A stretch of 52,821 bases of DNA from Catajapyx aquilonaris (Eukaryota). Both the position numbers and the translations under genes were made by a program. The stretch is taken from positions 1 to 52,821 of the forward strand of contig KZ538704.1 of NCBI GenBank assembly GCA_000934665.2, read 5' to 3'. The first letter of the stretch is position 1; each line of letters opens with the position of its first letter. The notes beneath the pieces are model-generated. The model ran no database searches and was not told the DNA's origin. It saw only the letters and a program-made list of their open reading frames with translations. Shown in pieces: positions 12,767 to 44,155 of this stretch.

Positions 12767-14510
12767 ATGTTGCCCTTGGCTTCGGAGATCAAGAAGGAGG
12801 AGGAGGAGGAGGAGGACGGGGAATTAGCTGCGGGGGATGATGAGGTGCAGCTGCCTGATGATGATGATGACCTTCCTGCTGTCAAGGTGGAGTCTGCTGA
12901 AGAAAGGTCTGCCGGATGGTGTCATTTTTAAGGTGTCGAGATCAAAGTGTCACTTTTCCCAAAGAAAGGAACACTGCCCGTTTTCAATGGAAGTGACTGC
13001 ATCTCTTAGGACAGGGTCGTACCTGTATCTGAAAGTGTTTTCACGCCTTTTCCCAGGGCTATGTCATTGGTGTTAAAGATCAAGCAGGAAGAGGAGGAGG
13101 AGGAGGACAAATTAGGAGAGATAAAAGAAGAGCCAGAGATAGACGTACCGGTAGATCAAATGGAGGACGGCGAGGAAATGGAAGAAGACGGCGAAGGAAT
13201 GGTGACGACAGAGGATTTGTGGAGTTTGGTCATGAAGGAGGAACCTCGTTTGGCGGAACCAACTGCCGTGGAAGTACCGGATGAGGTGGCATCGGATGGG
13301 GCACCAAATGTGGAAAGCGTGGCTTCCAGCAATGTAGGCACCCCACTGGGAGCCACATCCAGAAGGACTTCTGCTGGAGGACAGGTACGCTGTCATCGGA
13401 AATGTGCGCTTGATGTTCACCTCCGCTTTCTATTAGCATTACAGTTGGAGTGAGATGTCCGACATGCACCTTGCCTATGGCGAAGCACAGGGGCGTGGTA
13501 GAGAAGCCCAGAGGGTGTACCAGGAACTATTTCCAAAGAGGAAATTGCCAAATGGCTCCACCTTTGCAGCAATTGACCAGCGGCTGAGGGAATACGGTTG
13601 TCTCTACAAACAAGCACGTGAGACTGGACGACCCGCCACTGTGGCAACTGCAAGCATGAAGAAGAGAGTGTTGGACTGCTTCAGAGAGGGGTCTGCCTCT
13701 AGCCTTCGCAGCGTGGCCCGTGCCCTGGGCACCAGTACCAGCACTGTTAGGAAGATTGTGAATGAGCACAGGCAGCAGTTCCACATGTACGCAGAGAGGG
13801 TGCACATACTGGGTCCGGATGACTTCCCTTTGCGGGTGGAGTTTGCCGAGTGGTTTCTGAAGCAACATGCAGCGGATCCCCAGTTTCCGTCCCTTGTGCT
13901 CTTTACTGATGAAGCATCGTTTGATCTGGAGGACGCATGGAACTCCAGAAACAGCAGCGTCTGGGAGAAAGAGAACCGTCTCGCCGTACGACCCAAGAGC
14001 CAGCAAGATAGAGTTTCGGTAAACGTGTGGGTAGGAATTCTAGGAGACCTCTTGCTGGGTCCACTTCTGCTCCCGCAAGACCTAGATGCCAGGTCGTACA
14101 GGGTGTTTCTGGGCCACTCGTTGCCAGAGCTGCTGGAGTGTGTTCCGCTGGACATGCGCATGAAAATGTGGTTCCAGCATGACGGGGTGTCTGCTCATTT
14201 TGGGTCTGGTGTTGGTAAGTGCCTGAAGAGGACCTTTTGCGACAGGAGGATCAGCCAGGGCGGCCCTGTGTCCTGGCCACCACGGTCACCGGACCTCACT
14301 CCCGTCGACTTTTTTCTGTGGAGTTACATCAAGACTCTAGTGTACGAGACCCCAGTGGATTCGGAGCAGATTCTTCTCGCCCGAATCATGGCAGCATGTG
14401 AAGTGATACGGGCAACAGACTGCATATTTCAGCAAGTGCGCGAGTCCATGTTGCGTCGCTGCAAGGCCTGCGTCCAGGCCAACGGGCGCAACTTTGGCCA
14501 CTTCCTTTAA
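12767..14510 (+). CDS. G4: two acidic exons fused to a DD41D (rosa-type) Tc1/mariner transposase with DUF4817-type HTH; exons 12767-12906, 13057-13384, 13437-14510
   Basis: Phase-2 then phase-0 introns are in frame. Exon 3 starts HYSWSEMSDMHLAYGEAQG; motifs FTDEASF, FQHDG, WPPRSPDLTPVDFFLW with 41 residues between the 2nd and 3rd D. No TIRs seen. Confidence 0.85.
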
Positions 14511-23335: not shown

Positions 23336-23429
23336 GACAGCGCATAAGCACCTCCCTACTGACGGGCGTACGAATGCGCCCCAATTAAAAAAAAAAAAAA
23401 CGACAAAAGAAAATTTCAAGATGGCCGCC
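23336..23429 (+). promoter_or_regulatory. Cluster promoter, G8
   Basis: GACAGCGCATAAG 23336; GGCGTACGAATGCGCCCC 23365-23382; CAAGATGGCCGCC 23417-23429. Confidence 0.7.
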
Positions 23430-23503: not shown

Positions 23504-25613
23504 ATGCCGAAGGTGACTCGGGGCAGGCGGAGGGGAAGGAGCAGCAGCCGCGTCGGGAAAGGGTGAGCGGGAGGAGTCACAGAGATGGAGATACAATCTG
23601 TGGGGATAAGGAGGACCTGGTGGGAAAATGAAAGTGATTATTGTTTGACTGGCTGGTGTTTATTCCAGGACAGTGTCACTCGCACTGGAAAACAATGGGG
23701 AGCTGGAGGAAGAAGATGGGGATGGCGGCGAAGGGGAGACGTGGCCACTGGAGGAGGAAGCCTCACCCCACTCGCAGGATGCTTTTACAGAGTTCACGCT
23801 GCTTCGCGGGGTCAAAGGGGAGGCCATGGAGGATGAGGGGGATTGCACAGCTACGGGGAAGGCTTCATGCTTCGATGGCCACTCGCCACTCGTAGAAGTC
23901 AAGGAAGAACCAGAAGCGATGATTGCAACCGCATCTGAAGTGCCCACAGACGCTGATGACCCATTGACACTGAATTCTGAAGCCACCGCAGAGGTACACC
24001 TTTGCTACCATTTTTTGTATTAAAAAATACACAAGGCAAGCACTGTAATGAGATCCTCATTTTCTATCTCAAAATAATAACTCTCTGAGTGATAAAATGC
24101 TGCAGTGCTGACAAGGGTCAGAGGGGCCTTCACATTTTCAAAAAAACTGTGGCCGGGACATACAGATTGCTTGTGACTGGTTTTTTCTCTGAAGATTATC
24201 ACAACATAATTTTTCGCTTATGCTTTTGCAACATGTACATACGCCAGGAGGGACGGTGACAACTAGGTGGATTGATTATACCTGATAACTAGCGCCTTCC
24301 TACCGGTATGCCCCAATGTGAATGTTGGGATATTGGAGTAGGAAATCTGTTACGTTTTATCATACTCCAAGGTGTTCACTTAGACAGAGTGTTCTTGGGT
24401 TATCTTTAGTGCACCGTGAAGGAAGTTGAGGGAGGATGGCCCTGTGGGGTGTTGGGCAGTTCAAGGCCACTTGACTGCAATGTGACAGCAATGGGGAGCT
24501 TGGCACCGGTTGGGAGAATGGCAGCGGACAGGATGAACACAAAGGCATTCTTTGCCATGTATTACGGAGGGATCAGGTCTATCGTGGGATGGTGCATGGA
24601 GGTGGGCCTTCTGCCCAAGAGCTGCACATGTGAGCGTTGCGGAGAGGAAGCCCATGTGTACTACCACCCTGGTATGTCACTTGGCCATTCCTGTTTCACT
24701 GTCTTTGTGATTAATGTGTTCCTCTTTTCAAACCTAATTCAGATGGAGACGTTAAGTGGGTGTGCAATCAACAGCGGCTGCGGTGGTCCAAGTCAGTTTT
24801 CAAGTGCAGCATATTTAAAGACTGCCACATTGGTGCTCCCAATGTGCTTATTTTTATGCTGCACTTCTCAAGAGGACACACGGCCTATGACTTCCTGTCT
24901 TCTGAGTTGGGTGAAGGAGAGGCTGAAGCTTCTTCTAAAACAATTTCTAGATACTTATTACAGTTCCGAGAGATTTGTTTCACATGGTTGGAAGAAATGT
25001 ACAAGGAAGAAGGGAGAATTGCAGGGCCTGGTCATGTAGTAGAAATTTTCGAGACCAAAATTGGTTAGTGGTTGCTTGGTTCACTCTTTCGGATTTTTAA
25101 ATTGTGCGTCACATGCTAACATATCTTGGTTCTTTAGGTAAGCGCAAGTATCACAAAGGCAAGATTGCTGATGGTTGTTGGCTAGTGGTGATTGTCGAGA
25201 GAGGGGAAGCCCATGGGCCGGCAGGAGGAAGGTTCCGTATTTTCATTTGCCCTAACAAGAGGAGAAATGGACAAACCCTAGTTGACATCATAAAAACCAA
25301 TGTTGCGTCTGGAACCACTGTCGTCACTGATCTGTGGGGAGGCTGCGATGGTGCCAACGCAGAGAGATTTGATCGTCTCACTGAAGACCACTCCATGAAC
25401 ATTGTGGATCCAGTGACATGGACAAACAAACGAGCTAGGGAGTCGGAATGGCGACCGGTAAAGACTATAGTGGCGAGAGGTGGCCATGCGAAGACCTCCC
25501 TCTTCCTTCTCTTGGCGGAGCATCTCTGGAGGAACGAGATGAAGAGGACAGGCACTGACCCATTCATGGGGCTGGTGTCCATTTGTTCAAAAGTGTATAA
25601 AATTGCCCATTAA
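23504..25613 (+). CDS. G8: acidic leader + Merlin/ISXO2 (IS1595-like) transposase derivative; exons 23504-23562, 23669-23993, 24410-24671, 24743-25063, 25138-25613
   Basis: One open frame across phases 2,0,1,1. Motifs CTCERCG, IAGPGHVVEIFETKIGKRKYHKG, GTTVVTDLW, DHSMNIVDPVT, RESEWR match the Merlin pattern VEIDE..KRKYHRG / SDxW / NHS.NFVDP.T / IESxW, with first D changed to F. Start codon uncertain. Confidence 0.8.
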
Positions 25614-26179
25614 AGACCAAGTTCCATGGACACTGCACATAAAATTATTGGGTTCTTTTCCTGCAGAGGCTGTTATTGGGGATGTACGTGGTAAGTGATC
25701 AGGTAGGTTAGGTTAGGTTGCACAGGAACATTCATCTACCCAGTAATAGTGAAGGTATTCATTTCTGCCACACTCATCAGTACAGCCACAATCACGTATT
25801 TAAATTATTTGCTTGCCGGGTTCATCCATTGCAGTTGGCTGTTGTGCACACAAAGTTTTAGTAAGACAATTTATTTTAGTAGATGTACACGCACACACAT
25901 ACATGCACGCAGAACTAATAAGAGTGAGGAGAACCAGTTGCAGTTACTCTGTCAGGATATCACTCAGACAAGTAGTCATCATAAATGAATGCTTGTATAT
26001 CAGGATGCACGCAAGAGGTGAGGTCATACACATTGTACGCTGGTACATGTGATTGTATGCCATTTTGACTTGCAATGGTTGAAGAGAGTGCAGTAGTGTT
26101 CATGATAGAGAGTTGATGTTCATGCATCACGACGAAATGATTTTCTGGAATATGCGCCAAAGCACGCCTAACTAAAGGG

Positions 26180-26250
26180 ACAAGGAAGAAGAAGAAGAAA
26201 TGATTGCAACTGTATCTGAAAGTGTCCCCAGGTGCTGATGACCCATTAAC
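26180..26250 (+). pseudogene. Orphan fragment of a leader exon
   Basis: AAGGAAGAAGAA..ATGATTGCAACTGTATCTGAA..GCTGATGACCCATTAAC matches the EMIATASE..ADDPL end of leaders, frameshifted. Confidence 0.65.
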
Positions 26251-26308
26251 AATTAATTAATTATTATTGTGAAGTGACTGGTCTGTCGCTACTAAATTAT
26301 TTTATTTG

Positions 26309-26399
26309 GGCGGTAGCAGTTACCCCTCCCCGATAGCGCTTAACACCTTCCAGTCCATCGTCCAGCGATCGGAATGCACCCGAATCCAAGATGGCCGCC
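26309..26399 (+). promoter_or_regulatory. Cluster promoter, G9
   Basis: GATAGCGCTTAA 26332; GCGATCGGAATGCACCC 26365-26381; CAAGATGGCCGCC 26387-26399. Confidence 0.75.
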
Positions 26400-26639
26400 C
26401 CTTTCTTCTCTTCATTATAAATCGATCGTTTTCGAAGTGATTCCTCTTCGATTTTTGCTCCGTTTTCTTCCTCTTCTTGACCTGGTTTGTTCTCTGTCTC
26501 TGGCTGGAGTGACCGGAGGACGAGGAGCTGGAGCAAGGTGAGTGGATGGACGGAGAGGGAGGGAGACCGACGGTGGCAGGCATATGCCACTCTTATTGTG
26601 ATTATATCATCTGCCCTGCTTATTGTGTGTTCCAGGAAC

Positions 26640-28453
26640 ATGTCGTTTGTGCTGAAGATCAAGGAGGAGGAGGAACTGGAAGATGAGGACCACGACGACA
26701 CTGCGAGGAAGAGAGCCAAGGTGGAGGCCTCTTCAGGCTTCGATGGCGACGACTCACCTCCCGTTGACGATGATGACGGGCTTTGTGAGGTGAAGGAAGA
26801 ACCAGAAGAGATGATTGCAACCGCATCTGAAGTGCCCACAGACGCTGATGACCCATTGAATTCTGAGGCCACCCCAGAGGTACGCCTTTTGCCAACTTTT
26901 TTGCAACACCTACGCGAAGTGCGGAAAACTTACCAAGTGATCTGACGTCATCAGCAGGGTTTCCATGGAGACCCCCTCACAGAACAATACGAGTAAACAG
27001 TGTCAACAAAAAAGAAATCAGTGGAAGATACAATGACGTCAGATTTTCGTTAGGTTTTCCGCACTGTTGGCCAGGAGGGAAAAGGTGAAAACTAGATGCA
27101 TTGCTCATGCCAGTCAACCAATTGCGTTCCTACTGGTATATCCCAGTCTGAAGGTTGATCTGCACCCAAGAATTTATGCCCAACTGCACAAATAGAAAAT
27201 TTGTTATGTTGAATATAGAGGTGTGAACCTATAGACAGGGTGTTCTTGGATGATTTTCAGTGCTCAACGAAGGAGGTTGGGGAAGGCCAGCACTCTGTGG
27301 TGTTGGTCGATTTAAGGCCACTTCGCTGCGACGTGGGACAGGTGAGGAGAATGGCAGCGGACAGGATGAACACCAAGGAATTTTTTGCCATGTATTACGG
27401 AGGGATCAATTCTATTGTGGGATGGTGCATGGAGGTGGGCCTTGTCCCCAAGACTTGCAAATGCGACCGTTGCGGAGAGGCAGCCCATGTGTACTCTGAC
27501 CCTGGTTAGTCACTTGGTCATTCTTACATCGTTTTCATCATATGATTCATGTAATTCTATTTTAATCCTAATGTGTAGATGGAAGGGCTTATTGGAGGTG
27601 CAAGAAACAAGGGCTAGAGTGGTCCAAGACTGTATTCAAGGGCAGCATCTTTCAAAACTGCAATATTGGTGCTCCCAATGTGCTCATCTTTATGCTGCAC
27701 TTCTCAAGAGGACACACGGCCTATGACTTCCTTGCTTCTGAGCTGAGGGAAGGAGAGACTGGGGTTTCCGCTAATACCATTTGTCGATACTTACTACAGT
27801 TCAGAGAGTTATGTTTTGCTTGGTTGGAGGAAATTTACAAGGAGGAAGGGAAAATTGGAGGGTCCGGTCATGTAGTAGAAATTTTTGAGACCAAAATTGG
27901 TTAGTTGTTGCTTGGTTCACTCTTTCGGATGCTTTTATTTTTTACGTCGCATGCTAATGTAACTTTCTTTTTTTTAGGAAAGCTCAAGTATCACAAAGGC
28001 AAGATTGCTGATGGTCATTGTCTAGTGGTGATTGTCGAGAGAGGAGAAGCCCATGGACCGGCAGGAGGCAGGTTCCGTATTTTCATTTGCCCCAACAAGA
28101 GGAGAAATGGACAAACCCTAGTTGACATCATAAAGGCCAATGTTGCGTCTGGAACCACAGTCGTCACTGATCTGTGGGGAGGCTGTGATGGTGCCAACGA
28201 AGAGAGATTTGATCGTTTCACTGAAGGCCACTCCATGCACTTTGCGGATCCAGTGACATGGACAAACAAGCGAGCTAGGGAGTCGGAATGGCGACCGTTA
28301 AAGGCTATAGTGGCGAGAGGTGGCCATGCGAAGACCTCCCTCTTCCTTCTCTTGGCAGAGCACCTGTGGAGGAACGAGATGAAGAGGACAGGCACTGACC
28401 CATTCATGGGGCTGGTGTCAATTTGTTCAAAAGTGTATAAAATTGCCCATTAA
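26640..28453 (+). CDS. G9: acidic leader + Merlin/ISXO2 transposase derivative; exons 26640-26879, 27261-27504, 27579-27899, 27978-28453
   Basis: Same intron positions and phases as G8; VVEIFETKIG; open frame throughout. Confidence 0.85.
26918..27065. mobile_element. Short MITE in G9 intron
   Basis: AGTGCGGAAAAC..TCTGACGTCAT / ATGACGTCAGA..GTTTTCCGCACT inverted arms; absent from the homologous G10 intron. Confidence 0.6.
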
Positions 28454-28506
28454 AGAGAGCCTAACATTATATTAATTGCGTTAAGTTCCCCATTAAAGGT
28501 TCTCCA

Positions 28507-28599
28507 TAGCTGGCGGTAGCTGTTACCCCCCGATAGCGCTTGACACCTTCCAGTCCATCGTCCAGCGATCGGAATGCACCCGAATCCAAGATGGCCGCC
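28507..28599 (+). promoter_or_regulatory. Cluster promoter, G10
   Basis: Near-identical to G9 promoter; GCGATCGGAATGCACCC 28565-28581; CAAGATGGCCGCC 28587-28599. Confidence 0.75.
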
Positions 28600-28854
28600 C
28601 CTTTCTCCTCATTATAAATCGATTGAATTTGTTTTCGAAGTAATTCCTCTTCGATTTTCGCTCCGTTTCCTTCCTCTTCTTGCCCTGGTTTGTTCTCTGC
28701 CTCTGGCTGGAGTGACCGGAGGACAAAGAGTTGGAGCAAGGTGAGTGGGCCGTGGACGGAGAGGGAGGGAGGGGAGAGAGACCGACGGTGGCAGGCATAT
28801 GCCACTCTTATTGTGATTATATCATCTGCCCTGCTTATTGTGTGTTTCAGGAAC

Positions 28855-30948
28855 ATGTCGTTTGTGCTGAAGATCAAGGAGGAGGAGGAACTGGAAGAGG
28901 ACCACGACGACACTGCGAGGAAGAGAGCCAAGGTGGAGGCCTCTTCCCGCTTCGATGGCGACGACTCACCTCCCGTTGACAATGATGATGACGGGCTTTG
29001 TGAGGTGAAGGAAGAACCAGAAGAGATGATTGCAACAGCATCTGAAGTGCCCACTGACGCTGATGACCCATTGACACTGAATTCTGAAGCCGCCGCAGAG
29101 GTACGCCTTTTGCCAAACTTTTTTAAAAAAGATGCAGGCAAGCACCAGCTAATGAAATTCTTTATTTTATTTTTATTTTGTACTTGAATAACCTTAGAGT
29201 AGTAAAGTGTTGCTAATGCTGGTGAGGGTCAAGGTTAGAGGCCCATTGTAATATGTGACCTGGACATTCACATTGCTTGTCCTTGGTGTACCACGGGGAG
29301 TTTTTAAGCTATGAAGATTACCAAATCAAAAACAAAAAACCTTGTAGTTTTGCAATGCCTACATTGGCCAGGAGTAGGGAAGGTGAAAACTAGGTCCCAT
29401 GCCAGTCAACTGTCTCTCTCTCTCTCTGCCACTATATTTGACCATGACAGTTTTTAAAATTGCAATTAGGGGGGGTGGGGCCATACTTGTGAGCCTTATT
29501 TCCAGGCGAGTTATATTGAAGGCCAAAGTTGGTTAATGTGGCAGTACATACGGCCAGGGGTGGCTGGGGGGCAGTGGCTGTGTTTCAAAAACGGAGCAGG
29601 CAGCCTAGGAAAGCGGGCAGGAATAAAATTATTAACACGAATGTATTATACATTTAAAATTTAAACAAATAATTGTGATAATTGTGATTTCAAATTTATA
29701 ATCCACAGAGTTGCGGGAGAGCAGGCAGGCAGGCAAGCAACAAGATGGCAGGAAGAGAGGACACGGGAACTTCAGCCGACACAATCCCCACGGTACTGCC
29801 GCTGCCATCGGCCCCAACCACTACCAACCCACAGCACCCTGCTGTGGCCCGACCCGGCCTGGAGTTGAATAACAAGGAATTTTTTAACGTATACTATGCT
29901 GGGACTAAGGCAATGGTGGAGTGGTGCATGCAGTTGGGCCTTGTCACCAAGAGTTGCACATGTCCTCGCTGTGGACAGGCCGCCTACATGTATTATGGAC
30001 CTGGTTAGTCCATTGGTGTTTTGTAGCATTTACTTCATGGTTCATGCATTCCTTCATTTTCTCCCTAATGCAGATGGACTTGTTCAGTGGAGGTGCCACA
30101 AGCAAGGTTTCAAGTGGTCCCAGTCGGTGTTCAAAGACAGTGTGTTTGCAAACAGCAATGTTGGAATTTCCAATGTGATGCTTCTTATGCTGCACTTCTC
30201 AAGAGGCCACACGGCCTACAGCTTCCTGGCTTCGGAGCTGCGTGATGGACAGGTTCCAAGTGCTCACGACACCATTTCGCGTTACTTACAGCACTTCAGG
30301 GAGCTCTGTTTCATGTGGTTGGAAGAGATGTACCAGGAGGAAGGCAAAATTGGAGGATCTGGTCATGTAGTGGAAATTGTCGAGTCCAAAATTGGTTAGT
30401 TGTTGCTTGGTTCACTCTTTCAGATGCTTTTATTTTTTACGTCACATGCTAATGTAACTTTCTTTTTTTTAGGAAAGCTCAAGTATCACAAAGGCAAGAT
30501 TGCTGATGGTCACTGGCTAGTGGTGATTGTCGAGAGAGGAGAAGCCCATGGACCGGCAGGAGGCAGGTTCCGTATTTTCATTTGCCCCAACAAGAGGAGA
30601 AATGGAGAAACCCTCGTTGACATCATAAAAACCAATGTTGCGTCTGGAACCACAGTCGTCACTGATCTGTGGGGAGGCTGTGATGGTGCCAACGCAGAGA
30701 GATTTGATCGTCTCACTGTGAATCAATCCATGAACATTGCGGATCCAGTGACATGGACAAACAAGCGAGCGAGGGAGTCGAAATGGCTACCATTAACTGC
30801 CATAGTGGCAAAAGGTGGCCATACAAGGACCTCCCGCTTCCTTCTCTTGGCGGAGCATCTCTGGAGGAACGAGATGAAGAGGACAGGCACTGACCCATTC
30901 ATGGGGCTGGTGTCCATCTGTTCGAAACAATTTAAAACTGCCCATTAA
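28855..30948 (+). CDS. G10: acidic leader + Merlin/ISXO2 transposase derivative; exons 28855-29100, 29709-30003, 30074-30394, 30473-30948
   Basis: Open frame, phases 0,1,1; CTCPRCG; VVEIVESKIG (first catalytic D changed to V). Confidence 0.85.
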
Positions 30949-30963: not shown

Positions 30964-31058
30964 TAGCTGGCGGTAGCAGTTACCCCCACTGATAGCGCTT
31001 GACACCTTCCAGTCCATCGTCCAGCCATCGGAATGCACCCGAATCCAAGATGGCCGCC
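30964..31058 (+). promoter_or_regulatory. Cluster promoter, G11
   Basis: Near-identical to G9/G10 promoters; GCCATCGGAATGCACCC 31024-31040; CAAGATGGCCGCC 31046-31058. Confidence 0.75.
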
Positions 31059-31298
31059 CCTTCTCGTTAGAAGTGTTTGTGAAGTAATATTCCTCTTCGA
31101 TTTTTGCTCCGTTGTCTTCCTCCTCTTGCTCGGGACTGGTTTGTTCTCTGCCTCTGGCTGGAGTGGACGGAGGACGAGGAGTTGGAGCAGGGTGAGTGGA
31201 CAGGGAGGGAGGGAGGGGAGAGAGACCGACGGTGGCAGGCATATGCCACTCTTATTGTGATTATATCATCTGCCCTGCTCATTGTGTGTTCCAGGAGC

Positions 31299-31676
31299 AT
31301 GTCGTTTGTGCTGAAGATCAAGGAGGAGGAGGAACTGGAAGAGGAAGATGGCGAAGGGGAGGCAGGGAGGATCCCACCGAAGGAGGAGGTCTCATCGCGC
31401 ACACCAGACGACACAGGATTTGCACAAGTCAGCATGCTTCATCAGGTCAAAGGGGAAGTGGAAGAGGAAGAAGATGACCACGACGACGACACTACGAGGA
31501 AGAGAGCCAAGGTGGAGGCCTCTTCATGCTTCGATGGCGACTCACCACCCGTTGACGATGGTGACAGGCTTTGTGAGGTGAAGGAAGAACCAGAAGAGAT
31601 GATTGCCACCGCATCTGAAGTGCCCACAGACGCTGCTGATGACCCATTGACACTGAATTCTGAAGCCACCGCAGAG
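31299..31676 (+). CDS. G11 leader exon (126 codons); downstream partner uncertain
   Basis: MSFVLKIKEEE..AADDPLTLNSEATAE|gtacgc, intact, phase-0 donor; homology to G8-G10 introns stops about 31720. Confidence 0.75.
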
Positions 31677-31825
31677 GTACGCCTTTTGCCAACTTTTTTT
31701 TTAAGCATACACAAGGCTCCCTCGACTTCTTTCTTCCCACACTAAAGATCAGCCAAGAACACCCCGTCTATGTGAACACTTCCATATGGTGCATGCCTAT
31801 TGTGTATGCACACCTTGTGTATGAC

Positions 31826-32190
31826 ACACGAACGTTCAGTGGACGTTCGTGAATGTGCAGGGAATGTGATGTATGTTCTGTACATTCAGTGAACGTTCAG
31901 TGAATGTTCCCCATGAACACACCAACATGATGCGAACTTTCGCGAATGTGCAGGGAATGTGCCGTATGTTCTGTACATTCAGTGCATGTTTGGAGCTGGA
32001 CATCTGTGGAATGCTCTATTTGAATGTTCCCTGAATGTTCAGTGAATGTTTGTAGCTGGACATATACTTGGAAAACTCTTGTTGAATGTTCCGTGAATGT
32101 TCCGTGAACGTTCGTAGCTGGAGATAATTTTGTGCAATGCTTAATTTGAGTTTATACCGTGAATGTTCAGTGAATGTTCCGTTTGGAACA
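31826..32190. repeat. Array of GAATGTTC/GAACGTTC(A/C)GT repeats, probable subterminal region of a DNA transposon (EnSpm/CACTA-like)
   Basis: More than ten copies of TGAATGTTC-like units plus a ~45-bp duplication (GAATGTGCAGGGAATGTG..GTATGTTCTGTACATTCAGTG); lies just upstream of the DUF4806 gene. Superfamily is inferred; no second end seen. Confidence 0.55.
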
Positions 32191-33050
32191 TATTCGAAAG
32201 TGTACCGCGAGTAGAGCCGACAGATGGCGGCACCTGGGAAATCACGTGGATAACATCCAAGTGGTTCTTAATGATTGCTGGAAATAACATGGTAGCATTC
32301 CCATTAATTCATTCAATGCAAGACTAAAGTGAGTACAGGTTTTTACATACTAAAGAAGCGGATATAAGGCTGTCCTTCGACAGGCAATTGGACGACTTAA
32401 TGGCCACATTGCCCATTTTCACATGTGCATGCCCCAAAGAGTTCTGCTATAATATGTCATCAGTAGAGAAACTACTCGGGGTCAAATGTGGGGCAGCCTA
32501 ACATGCACTTGACATTATCTGGACTAATTGTTATGCCAGTTGTGAGACAACTGTCAGAACATAATATTACCCTAGAGGCCCAGATGCCTCAGCCTGCCTA
32601 ATCGGAAAGGATAGGGAGTAGGTCCTCTAGGTATATTATGAAGGGTGATCTGCCTCGGGTTTCATTTTCCTGGTGTTTTTGAGTTCAGCACGACATTCTG
32701 CACAGAATGGTACTAGTTTCACTTGCTGGATGGAAGTGGAAGCGTTGTTTTGGGACTGCTTTAGGGTCATTCTGCTTAGGTTAGGTTCGTTCTGTTTAGG
32801 TTATATATGTGCAGATGGAACAAATAAAGCTCTCTCCTGAAAAGTTCCTATATTGAGGCTTGAGATGTAGCAGGTCACCCTTCATATAATTATTATAGCA
32901 GATCTCTTTGGACTTCATATATGAGACTATCATTGCAAAGTGGAAAATAAATGCGCACTTAAGAGACAGTGAATAACAATTAGGATGATGAAGCGAATGA
33001 CTATGAACAATGCAAACTGATGTAAATTTTTCCTTACATTTCAGATTAAG

Positions 33051-34725
33051 ATGTTCTACATTGTGAATTTTGAAGAGGGCAACACAATTGCTCTAGTTCA
33101 TGAAAGTTGGTATAACAATGAAAAGTGTGCATGGCCTGCGGGAACGATTACCAGCAAAGCACTGGCTCAGATCACAAAAGCCGGCAAGCAACCACAACCA
33201 GATTGGCCTTGGCATAAGGCACGCCTATTGGGAGCGGCATGTGAGAAATAATTCATATATGTTATATATAGTTACATATTTAATGGAAATAATCATATGG
33301 TTATTTTAAATATTTAACAATAATTGTGATAAATACTATTAACAGACTCTTTTATTCATGAAGCTACATATGAGGAAGGGGCCAGGAAACTGAAAATTGC
33401 TGAAGAGAACCCCGAGCTGAGCAACCTTTCCCAATCTGCAGACCAACAGGCACAACAAAAAAGGAAGCGCAGACAAAAGCAAATGTGGAGGCCAACACCT
33501 GCTTGCTCTGGCTGTTCCAGCGATGACACTACTGACGACAATCCTGATTTATTAAGATCAGTGGCAAACAAGGTGGCAAAACTGGTACACCCTTCATCTG
33601 CACCCTCCAGATTAGTACAAAGGTACATAACAGGCATGTTGTACAGTATTGGTTCGTGGCCACTATAACAGAATAGTGGTATGCCTGATGCAGAAATTTG
33701 TAAATATTCGTATATGCATATAAATTATTTCAATAGTACGTGTTTCATTACAGGAGATCTGAAAATGACAGTGGTGATTTACATGGTTTGCCATCCACAA
33801 ATTGCAATATTTCACCTGGACTCTTTGAAGACCTGAAAACATTTATGATCGAGAGCAAAGGTACATGTAAATGAATTTACCTTAGCTTTGAATGCTGAAT
33901 GTACGATTTAAATTACTTCATCAGCAACTCAAGCCAGGACTCTCATGGCTGTATCAAAACTACAACATGATACTAATGCACTAAGGACGCAGCTCAATGA
34001 CATACATGCCAGAGTAATGGGAGAAAGCCATGCATCGGGGCAGGCAAAACACCTAGAGGACATGAATGTTGTCCCATTCATCCTCCCTGCAACAACCACT
34101 GCTGAATTTGAGACGATTGAAACCCATCTAAAAGATGATCACGCACTGGAAAAACTGGTTAAGTGTCATAGTAATTAATATTTGGATTTTTCAAGTGTTG
34201 TATGATTATGATGTAGCGCAAGAGAGCGTGCTGTAGCAGTTCCGTTTGTATTATTACTTGAAGATTTTCTTATAGGTACACCTCCTCAGTAAATTAGGAG
34301 GCGGCAGCATGAAAGAGGTGACAAGGAAGATAATGAGGACAACAATGACCAATGATTTGGCACAGGCTTTTAGCGTGACTGGAAGGACAGGGAAAAAGGC
34401 ATTCAACGGCACGAAGGTGTATGCAGCTGTAATAAGTAAGTAATGCGGTCAAAATTAATGTAAAATGCGTCTTGGACGAAACATTTTCTTATGTACAACA
34501 TATAGGATCAGTCCGAAACCATTACAATAAGGATGACAACTTGGTAACCAATAGTCACATTGACAAAGCTATATGTGACTGGCTGAGGTCATCAAAGGAG
34601 AGACTCCGTCTGGAGGGCAAGAGGTTTGTCTGCCATGACAGTATATAAAATATATAATTATGTATCTCTATATGACACCATTTTCTTATTCCTCAAGGAT
34701 GGAGAAAGCTCATCTAAGGGAATGA
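33051..34725 (+). CDS. Intact 7-exon DUF4806-type gene, probably the accessory gene of a DNA transposon; exons 33051-33240, 33364-33622, 33754-33860, 33925-34157, 34276-34435, 34506-34623, 34698-34725
   Basis: Six short AT-rich GT-AG introns with consistent phases. N-terminus FYIVNFEE..VHESW..CAWP..PQPDW; C-terminus LPATTTAEFETIE..LSKLGG..TRKIMRTTMTNDLAQAFSVTGRTGKKAF..ICDWLRSSKER. A likely own 5' exon ends at donor 32328. Confidence 0.75.
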
Positions 34726-35116
34726 GGAACAGGACATACAGTAGTAGGACCAAGCACTGACAATGGTCCTTTGTTGCACCCTTCATTCACCGGTGACTGC
34801 GGACTGCAGTGAACTCTTGTGCTCAGCAATGACAATGTGTGTACATCTGATACATATTTCAAGACCTATGTCTGTCTGTCTGTCCGCTATGCAAATCCGT
34901 ACGGAGGCCCCGACATACTCCCGAGGGGATTGATTAGGGGTAGTTTTTTACCAGGAGTAACATAAGCACATTGGAATTGTCCTCCGAGGTCTTCCTTGGC
35001 CACAGGAGGCGAAAAGGACTTTGGAACACTCTTCTAACAATGAGCAATTGGCAGTAAACATCACCTGTCTTGGGTTACCGCGGCAACCTCTGCATGCCCA
35101 AGTCCCTGAATCGCCC

Positions 35117-35129
35117 NNNNNNNNNNNNN
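35117..35129. other. Assembly gap (13 N)
   Basis: Run of N in the sequence. Confidence 1.
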
Positions 35130-35665
35130 CCCCCCCCTCCTGTCCCATGCACCCACCCTCCCACTCCCCCCCACCATTTCCGTTCCGTAATAATCAGCAT
35201 TTAACTTTCAATATTTCATTACATTACAAACACAACAAAAAAAACACGTTCCCACGGCAACGACGTTCCATCGCGGTCAGCAAGCAGTTCCTACAGCGGC
35301 GCATTAGCGAAAAAAATACGGTAACAATGAAGCCCTGGCCCACGACTTAAACAAACTCGCTTATGCATGGGCAGTATATGGGGATTCGACATGTCTACGC
35401 TTCTGCGGCCGTAGTACGGCGCAAAAATGGTGAAATGGACACAGATATTACACCAAAAAATAGGACATGATCTGGCGCAGGGCACCTTCGTCGTCATTTT
35501 GCCATTTTCAGCCTAGAAGTGACCTTTTCGTCGAGTTCAAGTGAAAGGAAAATGGCATTCCCCAAAAGCCCATTTGAAGAACATGGCGGCAGGAAACGCG
35601 ACAAAGTCGGGAACGCTTCTTCGCCCGTATGTCCACAATTTTAATCCAATCATATCGAGTTTGGT

Positions 35666-36052
35666 GGGGAGGTGTAGATGGCCGAGATGGCAACGTCTCG
35701 GCTTGCAGAGTGAAAGGCAGGTGAAAGGCCCCAGGTTCGATCCCCGGAGGTGGGGAACTTTCCTTTCACCTGCGTCAGGAGGGTCTCTGACCTGCACCAA
35801 GGAGGTGTCAGGCAACATAACCTCCTGGGGAACAGGACATGACCCATAGCTACGACGACATTGCACCTTGCACCCATGTTCCCTCCCCAAAAATCCCTAT
35901 CCTTTCCCATTGTCCCTGTTTCCTTGCACCGGTGAATGAAACAGAAAATATATACAGAAAACTGATGGTGGTATGCCAGAATGCCACCCCCCTATAGCAC
36001 CCGTAAGGGTCATCATGGGGTAAACTAAATAAAATAATAAATAAATAAAAAT
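35666..36052 (+). mobile_element. tRNA-derived SINE nested in the Helitron-like element
   Basis: A box TGGCCGAGATGG, B box GGTTCGATCCC, (TAAA)n tail, TSD TCGAGTTTGGT (35655-35665) / TCGAGTATGGT (36053-36063). Confidence 0.85.
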
Positions 36053-36774
36053 TCGAGTATGGTACCATAAGGCCAAACCTTGGCGCAGGGCACCTTCTTC
36101 GTGATTTTTCCGATTAACGGTGCGTTTCGCCACAAAAATATAAAATTCCCTCAAAAATGCACCTACCGTATTTTTACTAATGCGCCGCCTTAACCTGAAC
36201 TGGAGAACTGGAGAACTCACGGCCCATCACCACGATGGGCCTTGAGTTCTCCAGCGACCCCATAGCTGCCTGCTGGCACAGTCATCCAGGCCAGATTGGC
36301 CATTATTTTTGGGGTTGGGGAATGACTAAGAGAGGTGCCGGTCTTTCAATCCTATTCTACATTTACTGCACAACCTTCAATTTTTCATTACATACTTTTG
36401 CTGGATTTTTAAAGCGTATTGTGGACTCTCTTACAATCTGACATCCGCAGTTTGGTGTTTTTACTTCATGCACAGTCATGCAATATGCTCCATGCAACAG
36501 GTATGCCAACATTGTATAGCCATAATTATTGCAAAGGTTACTACCAAATCAATGACTTACACCTACAAGGAAAAGTCTTTCATAACCCGAGCAACACCGG
36601 GTATCCTGCTAGTATCTGTATATAATGAAACTGTCGATATTTAATGCCATGAAGTAGCTAGAGTTTGGGTGCGGTTGTTTTACCTTAAAACGAGGCTCCA
36701 GAAGGGGGATCAGACATTACTGTACCGGTACTGTACGGTACAGTACACCGGGTACAAAATCGCGGGCTTGGCTA

Positions 36775-36875
36775 TAGCGATGGATGGCGATAGCGGTTAT
36801 CGGGAAGCGTAGCGCTTAAGACCTTCCAGTTCATTGTCCGGCGATCCGAATGCGCCCCCGAATCCAAGATGGCCG
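36775..36875 (+). promoter_or_regulatory. Cluster promoter, G12
   Basis: TAGCGG 36791; TAGCGCTTAAG 36810; GGCGATCCGAATGCGCCC 36840-36857; CAAGATGGCCG 36865-36875. Confidence 0.75.
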
Positions 36876-37090
36876 ACCCTTCACTGAAATGCGACGAAAA
36901 TGTTGCTGATGGAGACATTTCTCGTCTATTTTGACCGGTTTTAGGTCGGGACTGGTTGCTCTGGCTGCGGTTAACTGAGGATGAGGAGTTGAAGCAGGGT
37001 GAGTGGACGGAAAAGAAGGGGAAGGAAGAAGTTGATAGGGTGGTGTGATGGCCCTTAGTGTTAGTTGACCTGCTTGTGTTTTCCAGGAAC

Positions 37091-38823: not shown

Positions 38824-40661
38824 ATGTCGCTTGTGCTGAAAATCAAGGAGGAGCTGGAGGAAGACGATGGGGATTATACCGCAGAAGAGACGGGAAGGCT
38901 GGCGTCGTCACGTGTACAGGACGACACTGCGTTTGTAGAAGTCATGCTTCATGACGTCAAGGAGGAAATGGCAGAGGAAGCAGAAGTGACTTACTCTGAT
39001 GAGGAGGACTTGGCACTCACTGAAGACACGCTTTGTGAGGTCAAAGTCGAGGAAGAGGAGGTGGTGGAAACGACGTCTGAAGTGGCTCCAGATGCGGATG
39101 ACCCATTGACCAATGAGGTACGTTACTATAAGCAGCTATAAGGAACTACAAAAAGATTGATTTGATGAAAACATTTTTAAAAATCCCTAATGCCCCGTAA
39201 TAACTTCAGAATGCTAATGTACACCCATTCTGATCAGTACTGTGCATGTGATTGCTTGGCCGTTACATTTTTTCCGCAAGGGGGTGTCAAATAAAATGCT
39301 TCTGGGAAATCTCTGATCTGCAGTCTAAGACTGGGCGCAAACAGGAAATTCGGGGGAGCGTTGTTGCCCGAGCAACTGGCCGGAACGAAAATGGCACGTG
39401 CACCCAGAAGAGTCGCACGCAAGTTTCCAGGTTTCTTGCACATAAGAAACCTGGACAAAATCTCGGGGCACATTACAATGCACCAAGAAGAGATTGGACC
39501 ATTCAGGCGGAAAGAAAATTAGTGGAATTCTACCGATGTAAGTCGAATATTTGGACTGAAATGGATAGGGCGTCTTTGCACAGGCTCTTGCGTAATCAGA
39601 CGTTGTCATTTCAGCCCATGAGTTGTTGTGGAACCCAATGGAGGAAGACTACCATAAACGACATGTGCGGGAGTATTTATTGAGGGAGCTGGCGGGACTC
39701 CTCCGGGAAGGTGCTGGGGCAGTCAGAGTTGGAGGTAATGCACTGACGGTTGCATGAGGGTGAATGAGGGTAATTATGCAAGCGCTTGGACCATGTAATT
39801 CAGTAATATGCAATTAAATGGATTTTTGGTTTTTTTTAAAAGTGGCTGATATCAAATCGAAGTTCAGGAACTTGCGAACCACGTTTCTAAGAGAGAGAAA
39901 GAAAGAGGCTGCATCACCATCTGGAAGTGCGTACAAGTCAAGGTGGCACCATTTTGGATCCCTCACTTTTCTCAACGATGTTATCAAGCTTGATTCGAAC
40001 ACGGATTCCATGGGAAGCCCACAGATTTGTAGTGTCAAGGTAAGCCACTCATTTCGGCATTTCTGTTAACTGAACAATGGCTGCAAGGCAAAACAATAAT
40101 TGGACACAGTGTATTGACCAGACTCCAAGAAATATTTACCCTGATTGATTACTTTATCTGCATACAATAATCAATCATCAACCATACTGACTGTGAGAGG
40201 CAACCAATTAATTTTATGTACTGTCACTTGCTTTTTCACAGATCATTGACGAGGATTCAAGGGTACCTCCACCCACTCTAGATCCAGCCAACACCAGCCC
40301 ATCTCCTGCTTCATCATGCGCTGCTGCTTCACCATCATCATCATCCGCTGTGCCTTCCCCTCTCCCAACCTTCCCAAACCCATCCCCCAACCCGTCTCCC
40401 AAGCTCCAAAAGAAGAATGCAAAACTCAAGATCGCTGCTGCGAACATTGAGGAGAAGAAAGTGGAGCTCCTGGCCAATGCAGCTGATGCGATGACAGCAG
40501 TGTTGGAAAGGCTGCAAGGCAACAGAGACCATGTAGAGCTGCACTGCCGCGCTCTGGCAGAACGAATTAAGAAACTGAGTCCAATAAATCAAGAGCTGGC
40601 ATTGTTAGACATGCACCAGGTAGTAATTAAATATGTAAAGCAGGAGGCTGGACATAATTGA
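38824..40661 (+). CDS. G13 isoform A: acidic leader + MADF domain + BESS-like tail; exons 38824-39117, 39324-39537, 39615-39734, 39843-40039, 40242-40661
   Basis: Open frame across phases 0,1,1,0: WTIQAERKLVEFYRSHELLWNPMEEDYH..DIKSKFRNLRTTFLRERKK..YKSRWHHFGSLTFL (MADF pattern); tail HCRALAERIKKLSPINQELALLDMHQVVIKY; AATAAA near 40819. Confidence 0.8.
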
Positions 40662-40730
40662 TTACTGCCTATCTATAACAATGCTTGCCACATTATAACA
40701 AGGGACTGTTTCATGTTCGTTCAACAGTTA

Positions 40731-41290
40731 TTACCTTTTTATAATGCTACACATGATTTTAACAGAAATCAAGTTCCGTGCTGCCCTGGATTTTATTACC
40801 TCCTTTGTACCATACATGAATAAAGTGCGCATGATAGTGAGTGCCTTGTGTGACTGTAAGAGAATCGGAGTCAGGGAAACACGGAAACAATTAGCACGGA
40901 TTCCAGACACCGTGCTCTCCAGACACAGCTGAGCTTGTGAGAGCCTAAACAAATAATGATGCTATATGGTCAGCCAGCGCCTCGATGATTGCAATGCATA
41001 TTTATCTTTGACAATGTATGACCTTTCTCCAGGGTGGGATGTCTATGAAAACATGATATTTGGAAGTCGGCTCCAAGTTACCTCTTCTGCAAGTTTCCTG
41101 TTTGCGCCTGGCCCAATCCATGTGATACGGACCATGGCAAAGTTTGTGCCTGCTTGAAACAATAAGTCACTTTGGTCATCTCTCTCATTGATCTATCAGG
41201 GATGTTGACAAGGTTGCAAACAAGGCAGGAATCATACACAGTGTGTATTATGGAAATGTTAAAATATTGCTGCAATATTGTGTTCATTGT
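40731..41290 (-). pseudogene. Decayed PIF/Harbinger transposase convergent with the MADF module
   Basis: Minus strand FRLSQAQLCLESTVSGIRANCFRVSLTPILL matches the Harbinger motif YRLSRARRxxENAFGILANRFRVFxTPIxL; upstream limit approximate. Confidence 0.65.
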
Positions 41291-41428
41291 GTGGTTGTTA
41301 TCGAGTGTTTATCAAATACGTTTTTCTATTTATTTTGGAGAATAAGGATGCTTTTGTGAAGGAACTTCAGGGGTAATACAATAATTAAGTACTGAGCGGT
41401 ATTCTAAGCGACTTGATGCATTTTGCAG

Positions 41429-42670
41429 GGAGCACATGGCGGAGCTGTTGGCAGTGATGCGATGGGAATCCAGGAGAGCCAGAAGACACGCATTAGGGAG
41501 AAGTCATTTGCTTGTCAAGTTTGTCACAAGAAGTTTAGTCAACTATATCGTTTAAATCAGCACTTGAAGACCCATACAGGAGAGAGTCCCGCTTGTCCGG
41601 TTTGTAAGAAGAGCTTTAGGCAGTCATCTCAGCTGAAGAAGCATATGATGACTCACTCAGGAGAGAAACCCTTTTCTTGTCAAGTTTGTCAGAAAAGGTT
41701 TAGTCGGCCACATCATTTGAAGAAGCATATGAAGACTCACACAGGGGAAAAGCCCTTTTCTTGCCAAGTATGTGAGAAGAAGTTTGCAGAAGCATCGAAT
41801 ATGAAGAGACATATGATCAGTCACTCCGGGGAGAAGACATTTGGTTGCCAAGTGTGCCAGAAGAAGTTTGCAGATTCATTGTATTTGAAAAATCACATGA
41901 TGATCCACACAGAAGACAGGCCATTTCCATGTCAAATTTGTCAGAAGAAGTGCAGGCAATCATGTGATTTGAAGAAACATATGATGACTCACACAGGAGA
42001 GAAGCCGTTTTCATGTGATGTGTGTCAGAAAAGGTTTAGGAAGTCGTCACATTTGAAAATTCACATGAAAAGTCACACAGGGGAGAAGACATTTGCGTGC
42101 CAAGTGTGCCAGAAGACCTTTGCGGAATCGACTTACTTGAAGAAACACATGATGACTCATACAGAAGAAAAGCCATTTTCCTGCCAAAAATGTCAGAGGA
42201 AGTTTAGTCAGCCGTACCATTTGAAGAAACACATGAAGTCTCACACGGAAAATAAGCCATTTTCATGCCTAGTGTGTGAGAGGAAGTTCCGCGAATCATC
42301 AAACATGAAGCAACACATGAAAACTCACACAGGGGAGAAGGCATATGCTTGCCAAATGTGCGAGAAGAAGTTTGCAGAGTCATCTTATCTGAAGAAACAC
42401 ATGATAACTCACACGGGTGAGAAATCGTTTACCTGCGAAGTGTGTCAGTTGAAATGCAGGCAGTCGTCCGACTTGAAAAAGCACATGAAGACTCATACGG
42501 GCGAGAAGCCATTTCCATGCCAGGTGTGCCAGAAGACGTTTGCAGAATCATCCAGTTTGAAAAAGCACATGATGATTCATACAGGAGAAAAGCCGTGGGC
42601 TTGTCCAGTTTGTCAAAAGAACTTTAGGCATTCAACCCACTTGAAGAAGCATATGATGACCCACAAATGA
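41429..42670 (+). CDS. G13 isoform B terminal exon: 14 C2H2 fingers
   Basis: Phase-0 acceptor ttttgcag at 41428; start GAHGGAVGSDAMGIQE is homologous to G12 exon start GLHGAAAGRNVTGVQE; nearest upstream leader is 38824-39117. Confidence 0.85.
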   Translation, partial: GAHGGAVGSDAMGIQESQKTRIREKSFACQVCHKKFSQLYRLNQHLKTHTGESPACPVCKKSFRQSSQLKKHMMTHSGEKPFSCQVCQKRFSRPHHLKKHMKTHTGEKPFSCQVCEKKFAEASNMKRHMISHSGEKTFGCQVCQKKFADSLYLKNHMMIHTEDRPFPCQICQKKCRQSCDLKKHMMTHTGEKPFSCDVCQKRFRKSSHLKIHMKSHTGEKTFACQVCQKTFAESTYLKKHMMTHTEEKPFSCQKCQRKFSQPYHLKKHMKSHTENKPFSCLVCERKFRESSNMKQHMKTHTGEKAYACQMCEKKFAESSYLKKHMITHTGEKSFTCEVCQLKCRQSSDLKKHMKTHTGEKPFPCQVCQKTFAESSSLKKHMMIHTGEKPWACPVCQKNFRHSTHLKKHMMTHK

Positions 42671-42742
42671 GAGGAATTTGGGGAAACATAATTATAAGCC
42701 TTGTGTTGTAGATCATTTGGCGTCATGTTTTTCCAGGATAAT

Positions 42743-44155
42743 ATGTCACTCAAAGAGGAGGAAGGTGAAGAACACATCAGCCAAGAGGAGCTGTCGAATG
42801 AGGAAACTCCATTCTTGCAAAGATAGCCCTGCACTTGACATGCTGCTAGAGGTCAAAGGGCGGGAATAAAGGACAGGGCCAGAGATATGTGATGTCATGG
42901 CTGCAGATGAGGACCTAGGGAAAGCAGTGAGAAGACCCTGTGTGACACTTATTATGATGGCTTCATTGACGATGACCTTTCTGATGAGACCAAGGAAGAA
43001 GAAGCGGAGATGGTGGCTAATGTGTCAGAAGTGGTCACAGATGACCCATTAGCGGCTAGAGAGGTACGAAACCACTGTGTGCATGGCTGGGTTTGGTATG
43101 ATCCTGGTATTTATATCTGTAGCATTGAGAGCAGATTTACAATAGAGTCATGGTTAACTTGTCAGTAATTTGGTCTTAGCAGAGAGACAGTTTGTGATCA
43201 ATTTTGGTGGATGCAGATATCAGGCCTGATTTTGTGAAACACTTGGATGTGCACTTATCATCATTTTGTTAACCAAATGTATTTTTCAGGAAGCACAGCA
43301 GGTGAGCCAAGGGAAGAGCCGCAGAAGAAGAAAGACACGCGAGGGAGCAAAACCAAATGAGTGCAACATATACCAGACAGTGTCATCTGACATTAATCAT
43401 CACGTGATGATGAAGTGCATGGGAGAGAAGCCATTTGCGAGGCAAGTTTGTCGGGAAAAATTGACAAAATCGTCAGAGTTGAAAACAGAAATGGTGAATC
43501 GCAGAGGAGAGAATAAGCCACATGTGCGCATGATGTGCCGAAAGGAGTTCTCTCGGGCGTATGACTTGAACGTACACGCAAGGTTTCACACAGGAGAGAA
43601 ACAATTTGCGTGCATATTGTGCCGGGAAAAGTTTTACACGAAATCTCACATGAACAGACACACATGATTGTTCATTCAAGAGAATCTCCATATGCATGCA
43701 AATATTGCAACAAAAAGTTTCCTCGGGAACAGGAAATGAAAAATCACACAATGATTCACACTGGTGAAAAGCCATTTGCTTTGCAAAATATGCCACAAAC
43801 AGTTTATTTTGGCATCTGGGCTGATATACCATACTAGGATTCACACTGGAGGGAAGCAGTACGCATGTGACACGTGCCAGAAACAGTTCAGCAGATCATA
43901 CACCAACTGCAATCACACAAGAGGATTCACATCGGAGAGAATAATAATAAGCCGCACACATGTAAGCTGTGCCAAAAAGTGTTTCGTTACAAGTGTGGCT
44001 TGAACAGAGACACCTCGTAAGCCATTCAGGTGTGAATAAGCCATACGCATGCAAAGCGTGCCACAAAAAAATTCACCCGACCAACTGACGCGAAAAGGCA
44101 CGTGCTGATACGCCATGCAGAATGGAAATCATCGGAGTGCACAAGTGGTGAGAAG
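42743..44155 (+). pseudogene. G14: leader + zinc-finger pseudogene
   Basis: Leader MSLKEEE..DDPLAARE|gtacga (to 43063) has frameshifts and stops; finger exon from 43290 has lost Cys/His and has stops; no promoter. Confidence 0.8.

Follow-up and report, generated by a model that had tools for sequence, protein, structure and literature searches.

Organization of the locus

The stretch of DNA analyzed here, referred to as the window, comprises the 52,821 nucleotides (nt) at positions 1 to 52,821 of contig KZ538704.1 (assembly GCA_000934665.2) of Catajapyx aquilonaris. It is animal DNA with a cluster of C2H2 zinc-finger genes, in which 12 finger-exon blocks were counted and which is adjoined by DCPS and by a B9-domain gene. 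Three head-to-tail units occupy the span from 23.4 to 30.95 kb, and in each of them the exons of a Merlin transposase follow a leader exon of the type found in the neighboring zinc-finger genes. The three copies, named c1, c2 and c3 in their order on the + strand, are interpreted below as host-transposase fusion genes whose transposase part carries a replaced catalytic residue.

Five parts make up each unit: upstream lie the 12-nt motif AAGATGGCCGCC and a short first exon whose donor is GTGAG, an intron of about 100 nt separates them from the acidic leader exon, and three Merlin exons (exons 3 to 5) complete it. The coding introns run from GT to AG throughout and lie in phases 0, 1 and 1 at homologous codons in c1, c2 and c3, so that the identical intron positions announced by the original prediction are the same to the codon. 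The reading frame is complete in all three copies (480 amino acids (aa), as predicted, for c1, 426 aa for c2 and 445 aa for c3) and its stop codon is each time overlapped by ATTAAA. No more than about 100 nt separate the stop codons of c2 and c3 from the promoter region of the next unit. Each copy had also been placed behind its own leader. A leader exon is indeed found in all three, which leaves c1 as the part of the claim that needs correcting: its leader no longer has an ATG and the frame has to start at an ATG in the first exon (23504). The features of the block are the following.

23418..23429, + strand: c1 promoter-region motif AAGATGGCCGCC, one of seven matches in the window against 0.01 expected
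23504..23562, + strand: c1 first exon with the predicted new start MPKVTRGRRRGRSSSRVGKG; ATG at 23504, donor GT at 23563, in frame with 23669
23669..23993, + strand: c1 leader exon, acidic, long type, original ATG and IKEE lost; donor GAG/GTAC, phase 0
24410..24671, + strand: c1 exon 3, an unconstrained linker followed by the Merlin N-terminus with CxCxxC
24743..25063, + strand: c1 exon 4, ending in VVEIFETKIG, with F at 25048-25050
25138..25613, + strand: c1 exon 5, remainder of the DDE_Tnp_IS1595 domain with TDLW and RES; the stop codon overlaps ATTAAA
26182..26257, + strand: leader-exon remnant in the c1-c2 spacer, two tblastn pieces (KEEEEEMIATVSE and ADDPLTIN)
26388..26399, + strand: c2 promoter-region motif
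26428..26537, + strand: c2 non-coding first exon, donor CAAG/GTGAGT at 26538; families D7 and D10; 5' limit open
26636..26879, + strand: c2 leader exon, ATG at 26640, MSFVLKIKEEEE...DADDPL...PE; covered by an X1 contig
27261..27504, + strand: c2 exon 3, linker and Merlin N-terminus; both borders in the 625-nt contig
27579..27899, + strand: c2 exon 4, F (TTT) at 27884-27886
27978..28453, + strand: c2 exon 5 with stop codon
28588..28599, + strand: c3 promoter-region motif
28631..28740, + strand: c3 non-coding first exon, donor at 28741; 5' limit open
28851..29100, + strand: c3 leader exon, ATG at 28855; 97% identity to the c2 leader
29709..30003, + strand: c3 exon 3 with its own acceptor, a non-aligning linker and the Merlin N-terminus; splice predicted
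30074..30394, + strand: c3 exon 4, V (GTC) at 30379-30381
30473..30948, + strand: c3 exon 5 with stop codon
31047..31676, + strand: start of a fourth unit, with motif, first exon (donor at 31192) and leader at 31295-31676 (ATG at 31299)

The transposase part and its catalytic site

The Pfam profile DDE_Tnp_IS1595 recognizes exon 5 of c1, c2 and c3 (E 6e-6 to 3e-5). Profile scans were run on single exons and, since an intron interrupts the domain, the Pfam scores (24.5-26.7 bits) fall slightly short of the 27-bit cut-off. The NCBIfam profile transpos_IS1595 scored 22.8-26.1 bits on single exons of this intron-split domain against a cut-off of 75. An exhaustive search of the protein library with exon 5 returned 927 proteins at E ≤ 1e-3. 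The best identity was about 40% over the full exon and the best named proteins were arthropod Merlin-domain proteins. Once spliced, the three proteins align end to end with all 12 full-length Merlin transposases (36 of 36 pairings, E 3e-50 to 1e-23 at Z = 1e6), for instance over residues 2-289 of 294. A sequence search of the PDB gave matches at chance level only (E 0.66-0.7).

The catalytic columns were read from a hidden Markov model alignment of 148 relatives. The first aspartate is replaced by F in c1 (TTC, 25048-25050) and c2 (TTT, 27884-27886) and by V in c3 (GTC, 30379-30381), at a column where 98 of the 99 relatives covering it carry D and one carries Y, the other 49 of the 148 having no coverage there. 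The second aspartate (D in 144 of 146 relatives) and the catalytic glutamate (E in 139 of 145) are present in all three copies. None of them has an intact D-D-E triad, as the first D is replaced in each. In this class of enzymes the first D of the triad is essential. Other conserved sites are altered in all three copies as well, namely RGR to KGK, GY to GC and VNHS to EDHS, EGHS or VNQS, while the N-terminal CxCxxC and W.C cysteines are intact in all of them. The original prediction had described the copies as Merlin/ISXO2 transposases with F, F and V at the first catalytic position, the second D and the E in place and the N-terminal cysteine region preserved; the profile matches, the end-to-end alignments and the comparison with relatives agree with it on each of these points.

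Among the relatives, the 555-aa predicted cricket protein P0012 combines an intact Merlin domain (VLEIDE) with C-terminal acidic repeats that contain VKEE/IKEE-like motifs. Merlin transposases joined to acidic extensions may thus exist in insects too.

The host-derived 5' part

Leader-type exons (MS[FL]VLKIKEE..., ...DADDPL...) precede finger exons across the window. Their GAG/GTAY donors in phase 0 are common to the Merlin units and to the zinc-finger genes. Finger exons have phase-0 acceptors, and leader-to-finger splicing is predicted from these phase-0 sites. The first exon and its donor recur at 36959-37020, with 81% identity, before a zinc-finger gene (family D10). All seven occurrences of AAGATGGCCGCC, which we take to be YY1-site-like, precede leader-type exons. 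The Merlin units have their leader, first exon and promoter motif in common with the neighboring C2H2 zinc-finger genes. No zinc-finger exon was found between 22837 and 37841.

The leader is 80-126 aa long. The 12 leader exons that were picked and translated each contain two or three psi-K-x-E motifs and are composed of 21-36% Asp plus Glu. Psi-K-x-E is the SUMO consensus. The c2 and c3 leaders retain IKEE and VKEE together with an RKRAK stretch. The c1 leader, 54% identical to leader L4, has kept VKEE, has a VKGE and has lost IKEE. No KRAB domain was found by Pfam in the leaders scanned.

Transcripts

X1 is the sole public run found to hold part of the stretch (a quarter of the sampled words). 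It is recorded as of kind '?' and was taken as RNA because its contigs skip introns. A 625-nt contig joins c2 segments 26639-26879, 27261-27504 and 27579-27718 at the predicted GT..AG borders with 0 mismatches. It thus connects the c2 leader to Merlin exons 3 and 4, so the leader-to-Merlin fusion message of c2 is real, and the leader-spliced transcripts on which the original prediction had staked its case exist for this copy. Another contig covers 24867-25062 with 0 mismatches and joins exon 4 of c1 to exon 5 (25063 to 25138). Two more c1 contigs and further c2 contigs also match with 0 mismatches; c1 is transcribed and spliced. Altogether X1 shows four of the predicted junctions; c2 accounts for three of them, one being the exon 4 donor, and c1 for the fourth.

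Selection and duplication history

Over the 310 Merlin codons, the ratio of nonsynonymous to synonymous divergence (omega, Nei-Gojobori) is 0.33 between c1 and c2, 0.34 between c1 and c3 and 0.34 between c2 and c3. The 95% interval from bootstrapping spans 0.21-0.51, and in no pair does any of the 1000 replicates reach 1. A ratio below 1 among the paralogues had been expected if the genes were domesticated, and this is what is observed. By region, omega is about 0.3 in each Merlin exon (3, 4 and 5), 0.30-0.36 in exon 5, which encodes the catalytic body, and 0.26-0.36 in the leader, whereas the linker, which separates the acceptor from the old Merlin start, has a value of about 1. Purifying selection therefore acts on the whole Merlin part. 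Exons 4 and 5 (794 nt) align with 0 gaps among the three copies, against 3-8 gapped columns in intron 3-4, 0-4 in intron 4-5 and more than 100 in the leader intron. The c3 linker is unalignable with those of c1 and c2, yet it is open and in frame. Since the copies derive from local duplication, their divergence arose in place and reflects host-level constraint rather than selection during transposition.

In a tree of 58 of the 150 listed relatives (those of 280-420 aa), the three copies form a single clade (support of 100 in the Shimodaira-Hasegawa-like approximate likelihood-ratio test, SH-aLRT) nested among the Merlin relatives, with a stem 1.17 changes per site long and with c1 and c2 as sisters. 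The codons at the first catalytic position suggest a path from GAY through GTC (c3) to TTY (c1, c2), which fits the sister relation of c1 and c2. A single domestication followed by tandem duplication, as originally proposed, accords with this clade, with the shared introns, fusion and non-catalytic substitutions, with the codon path and with the head-to-tail arrangement.

The synonymous divergence (dS) is mosaic, with 0.12-0.20 in exon 5 and 0.10 in the c2-c3 leader versus 0.46-0.81 in exon 4, and c2 and c3 are 91% identical in the promoter, 97% in the leader and 97% in intron 4-5. Such a mosaic is a sign of gene conversion or staggered duplication. Similarity among the paralogues is far higher in the promoter, leader, intron 4-5 and exon 5 than in exons 3-4 and their introns, a pattern suggesting gene-conversion tracts that cross the unit borders and link the 3' end of a unit with the 5' end of the one after it.

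The spacer between c1 and c2 (25614-26300) exceeds the c2-c3 and c3-L4 junctions in length by about 690 nt and contains the leader remnant listed above, from which it follows that the tandem array was remodeled after duplication. Downstream of c3, the fourth unit has its motif, first exon and full-length leader, behind which neither a Merlin nor a zinc-finger exon is found. Its leader (31295-31676), an orphan, is the longest and best-kept leader exon. It is followed by a 62-nt tandem repeat (31978-32126) and then by an assembly gap, a run of N at 35117-35129. It is possible that a fourth copy is missing or collapsed in the assembly at 31047-37000.

Element ends and other sequences of the window

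Terminal inverted repeats (TIRs) were sought by inverted local alignment of the region upstream of each Merlin frame with the 400 nt past its stop codon, and compared with shuffled sequences. No inverted repeat flanking any copy scored above these controls: the best scores (22, 18 and 20 for c1 to c3) lie within the shuffle range (maxima of 30, 24 and 31). This flank comparison bears out the absence of TIRs in the original prediction. TIRs of Merlin elements measure 24-462 bp in the available text of a survey of this superfamily (PMC8101967). No element ends can be defined around the copies, at which the 8-9 bp target-site duplications of a Merlin insertion would lie. No further Merlin piece was found elsewhere in the 52.8-kb window.

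Within the leader-to-Merlin intron of c2 lies a pair of 15-nt inverted repeats 118 nt apart (26918-26932/27051-27065). X1 contigs from elsewhere match at 26918-27065 and then diverge from the window, and the same is seen at 29567-29602, likewise inside a leader-to-Merlin intron. Both segments are probably short dispersed repeats resembling miniature inverted-repeat transposable elements.

Another leader-type exon (13061-13387, donor CAG/GTACGC) is followed after about 50 nt by an intact 357-aa Tc1/mariner-like frame (13437-14510) with a helix-turn-helix domain (Pfam DUF4817, E 7e-6) and DDE-like blocks recognized by eye. No inverted repeat above chance was found within about 600 nt on either side of it. 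This frame was considered as a second in-frame fusion and rejected, the only possible short linking intron yielding a stop codon. It may represent either a recent insertion into the intron of the zinc-finger gene that has its finger exon at about 16.4 kb or a second, nascent capture.

In the zinc-finger cluster, a probable zinc-finger pseudogene belonging to this family is marked by a leader-like exon at 42722-43051 that has three in-frame stop codons and adjoins finger exons at 43.3-44.1 kb. The gene at 38824-42709 has its leader exon at 38824-39117 and its long finger exon at 41429-42709; between them lie open frames of 143 and 149 aa (39252-39683 and 40212-40661) matching no Pfam family. 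An Rfam scan of the window gave no match.

Interpretation of the fusion genes

KRABINER originated when a mariner transposon inserted in an intron of ZNF112 and the acceptor just upstream of the transposase frame came into use. In the available text of the survey by Cosby et al., such an acceptor served in 8 of 9 traced tetrapod fusions and the older host-transposase fusions are described as losing the host transcript (10.1101/2020.05.07.082677). The anatomy of the Catajapyx block matches this birth route, and the block is accordingly read as a host-transposase fusion family of the KRABINER type, in which a Merlin transposase was joined to a non-KRAB exon of a zinc-finger family, tandemly amplified and would now act as a DNA-binding regulator or repressor. 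We estimate the probability of this reading as a whole at about 65%. Several of its components are observed. In c2, host and transposase exons are separate and joined by splicing. The host part also occurs in transposon-free host genes, where its splicing is predicted, and the fused frame is under purifying selection according to the values among paralogues.

The following series of events would account for the block. A Merlin DNA transposon may have landed in the single coding intron of a local C2H2 zinc-finger gene, as its anatomy suggests, and an acceptor just upstream of the transposase frame would have been spliced in phase 0 to the acidic first coding exon of the family. The zinc-finger exon would then have been lost from the fused gene. 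Asp was lost from the first catalytic position, probably by a change to V that was later followed by one from V to F, and the whole unit (promoter, first exon, leader and three Merlin exons) would have been duplicated head to tail, its 3' end together with the promoter and leader being partly homogenized by gene conversion. The resulting protein would no longer be able to cut DNA. It would have kept the zinc-ribbon/helix-turn-helix DNA-binding N-terminus and a constrained, non-catalytic RNase-H-like body, and through this N-terminus it could bind Merlin-end-like sequences scattered in the genome. The acidic effector exon, with its two psi-K-x-E motifs and RKRAK basic patch, would be carried to the bound sites, where it would most likely repress. 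Such a protein would be a transcription regulator or silencer whose binding sites were supplied ready-made by a transposon family.

The main functional rival assigns another role to the same fusion genes, that of dominant-negative inhibitors of Merlin transposition which occupy element ends or poison the active transposase in mixed oligomers. One dead active-site residue is the classic way to a poisoning subunit in DDE transposases, and constraint on the whole transposase rather than on its DNA-binding part alone (omega of 0.30-0.36 in exon 5), with the second D and the E in place, is what this role calls for. It leaves unexplained why an acidic effector exon is kept in frame under an omega of 0.26-0.36 (c2/c3). 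Moreover, the closest Merlins in the library are only about 40% identical to the copies, which sit on a long stem, and the window has no other Merlin element; a cognate active element may or may not still exist. Dominant-negative action is thus unlikely as the main role, while being the most serious competitor. The genes could alternatively be decaying transposon copies, exonized by chance in duplicated fragments of zinc-finger genes and giving noise transcripts and functionless proteins. The out-of-frame Tc1/mariner-like frame at 13437-14510 behind another leader exon offers an example of such an event, and the lost ATG of the c1 leader, the leader remnant and orphan leader in the block, the neutrally evolving linker and expression evidence drawn from a single run of kind '?' all go in the same direction. 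Decay would not be expected to leave three 310-codon Merlin frames open, with exons 4-5 free of indels at dS values of up to 0.8, omega at 0.33-0.34 with 0 of 1000 bootstraps at 1, intact splice sites at every border, and a leader-to-Merlin frame preserved in all three copies despite the unalignable c3 linker; neutral decay is accordingly improbable. Least probable is a native, possibly mobile Merlin family with an acidic N-terminal exon, two introns and tolerance of F or V at the first catalytic position, present here as nested or tandem insertions. The Y found at the first D in one of 99 relatives could speak for such tolerance, and the acidic tail of the cricket protein P0012 with its VKEE/IKEE-like repeats indicates that acidic extensions on Merlin proteins exist in predictions. 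Against this reading stand the lack of TIRs above chance, head-to-tail units that abut within 100 nt of the c2 and c3 stops, the absence of a further copy in 52.8 kb, the replacement of an essential residue, and a leader, first exon and promoter motif that belong to the neighboring zinc-finger genes.

Several points weigh against the fusion-regulator reading itself. DNA binding, its targets and repression by the leader are what we infer, and with the second D and the E kept, some metal or DNA-end chemistry could, judging from these residues, conceivably persist. The leader exon of c1 has lost its ATG and first IKEE motif, and the ATG at 23504 comes into frame only if a predicted splice, which lies outside contig coverage, is used. 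Among the contigs shown, none spans the c1 leader, the c1 first-exon splice or a c3-specific junction, and the 22 letters on which the sole joint into c3 (27898 to 30472) depends are common to c2 and c3. The stretches outside contig coverage, among them the c1 leader and most of c3, speak neither for nor against expression. The RNA status of X1 is deduced, the run not being recorded as RNA. Selection was estimated among the three paralogues alone, and gene conversion blurs the ages of the copies and could transfer changes between them. The protein collections yielded neither an orthologue nor a close relative (best identity about 40%), and word-indexed searches for longer exon 5 relatives and for leader relatives gave no match. 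A control with a DCPS exon reached at best 74-75% identity (arthropods and molluscs among the best, mammals and fish at 62-68%), which indicates that the lineage of the organism is poorly sampled. As for the leader, Pfam recognized no family in any of four leader frames or in the leader at 37091, and an Atlas search with the leader gave no usable match.

Novelty and significance

No animal case of Merlin domestication or fusion, or of a host gene derived from an ISXO2-like transposase, was found in the open-access literature and bioRxiv, supplementary tables lying outside the search. In their available text, the Merlin survey proposes domestication for protist copies only (PMC8101967), the survey of tetrapod fusions does not contain the word 'merlin' (10.1101/2020.05.07.082677) and a preprint surveying DDE transposases broadly makes no mention of Merlin domestication in animals. 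We therefore suggest, tentatively and with some doubt, that the block could be the first described Merlin-derived host gene family of an animal, one in which the finger array was swapped for a transposase that was disabled for cutting and tandemly diversified as an anti-Merlin or gene-regulatory module.

If this is true, zinc-finger effector exons that capture transposases are a general source of new regulators, well outside the KRAB genes of tetrapods. The tetrapod precedent, documented for KRAB and for other transposon superfamilies, is that fusion of a transposase to an effector creates a transcription factor together with its binding sites. A selected, expressed and tandem Merlin fusion would extend this principle to a new superfamily, a new uncharacterized effector exon and a poorly sampled animal lineage. 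The three paralogues, with their different linkers and N-termini, moreover offer a natural series on the effector exon and the dead catalytic body.

Comparison with known systems

With the Merlin/IS1595-IS1016 transposases, as they appear in the available text of their survey, the Catajapyx proteins share homology over the whole length, the N-terminal cysteine motif and the TDxW and ES blocks (PMC8101967). They differ from Merlin elements by the absence of TIRs, the loss of the first catalytic D, the fusion to a host exon, a host-type promoter and an arrangement in tandem instead of dispersed. The same text describes Merlin-related genes without TIRs or target-site duplications in Stentor and Symbiodinium, which are proposed to be domesticated (PMC8101967). 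As in the present case, frames are conserved there without element ends, some of the genes multiplied through segmental duplication instead of transposition and the DDE residues are not always kept (PMC8101967). Those hosts are protists and no fusion to a host exon is mentioned for them in the text available, in contrast to the animal host, spliced fusion and measured purifying selection reported here.

The local zinc-finger family resembles the FiNZ genes of cyprinid fish, described in the available text as a short Glu-rich N-terminal exon followed by a finger-array exon and as repressing young transposons (Wells et al. 2023, PMC10547256). The likeness lies in this two-part build and in the composition of the Glu-rich first exon. 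In contrast to the 28-aa FiNZ domain, the leader described here measures 80-126 aa, and in c1 to c3 the finger exon is replaced by a transposase.

SETMAR consists of a SET domain fused to a mariner transposase, binds element ends, has an altered catalytic triad and is a single-copy gene. The Catajapyx genes likewise splice a host exon to a full-length transposase with a changed triad, while involving another superfamily, another host domain and several copies instead of one. The birth of SETMAR is named as a similar process in the survey that describes KRABINER, as far as its available text goes (10.1101/2020.05.07.082677).

The closest parallel is with KRABINER and the other KRAB-transposase fusions of that survey. 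In both cases a transposon sits in an intron of a zinc-finger gene and an upstream effector exon is spliced to an acceptor near the transposase frame. The full-length transposase is kept, the host zinc-finger transcript is lost, as in the older of these fusions, and the expected role, which here would follow from the anatomy, is that of a sequence-specific regulator acting on the ends of the cognate element. The superfamily differs, being Merlin here and mariner, hAT, P, piggyBac and others in the text available on the tetrapod fusions, and the effector is acidic and psi-K-x-E-rich instead of KRAB. Finally, in contrast to the KRAB fusions, the Catajapyx family combines a replaced catalytic residue with three tandem paralogues, in a host far from the sampled tetrapods.

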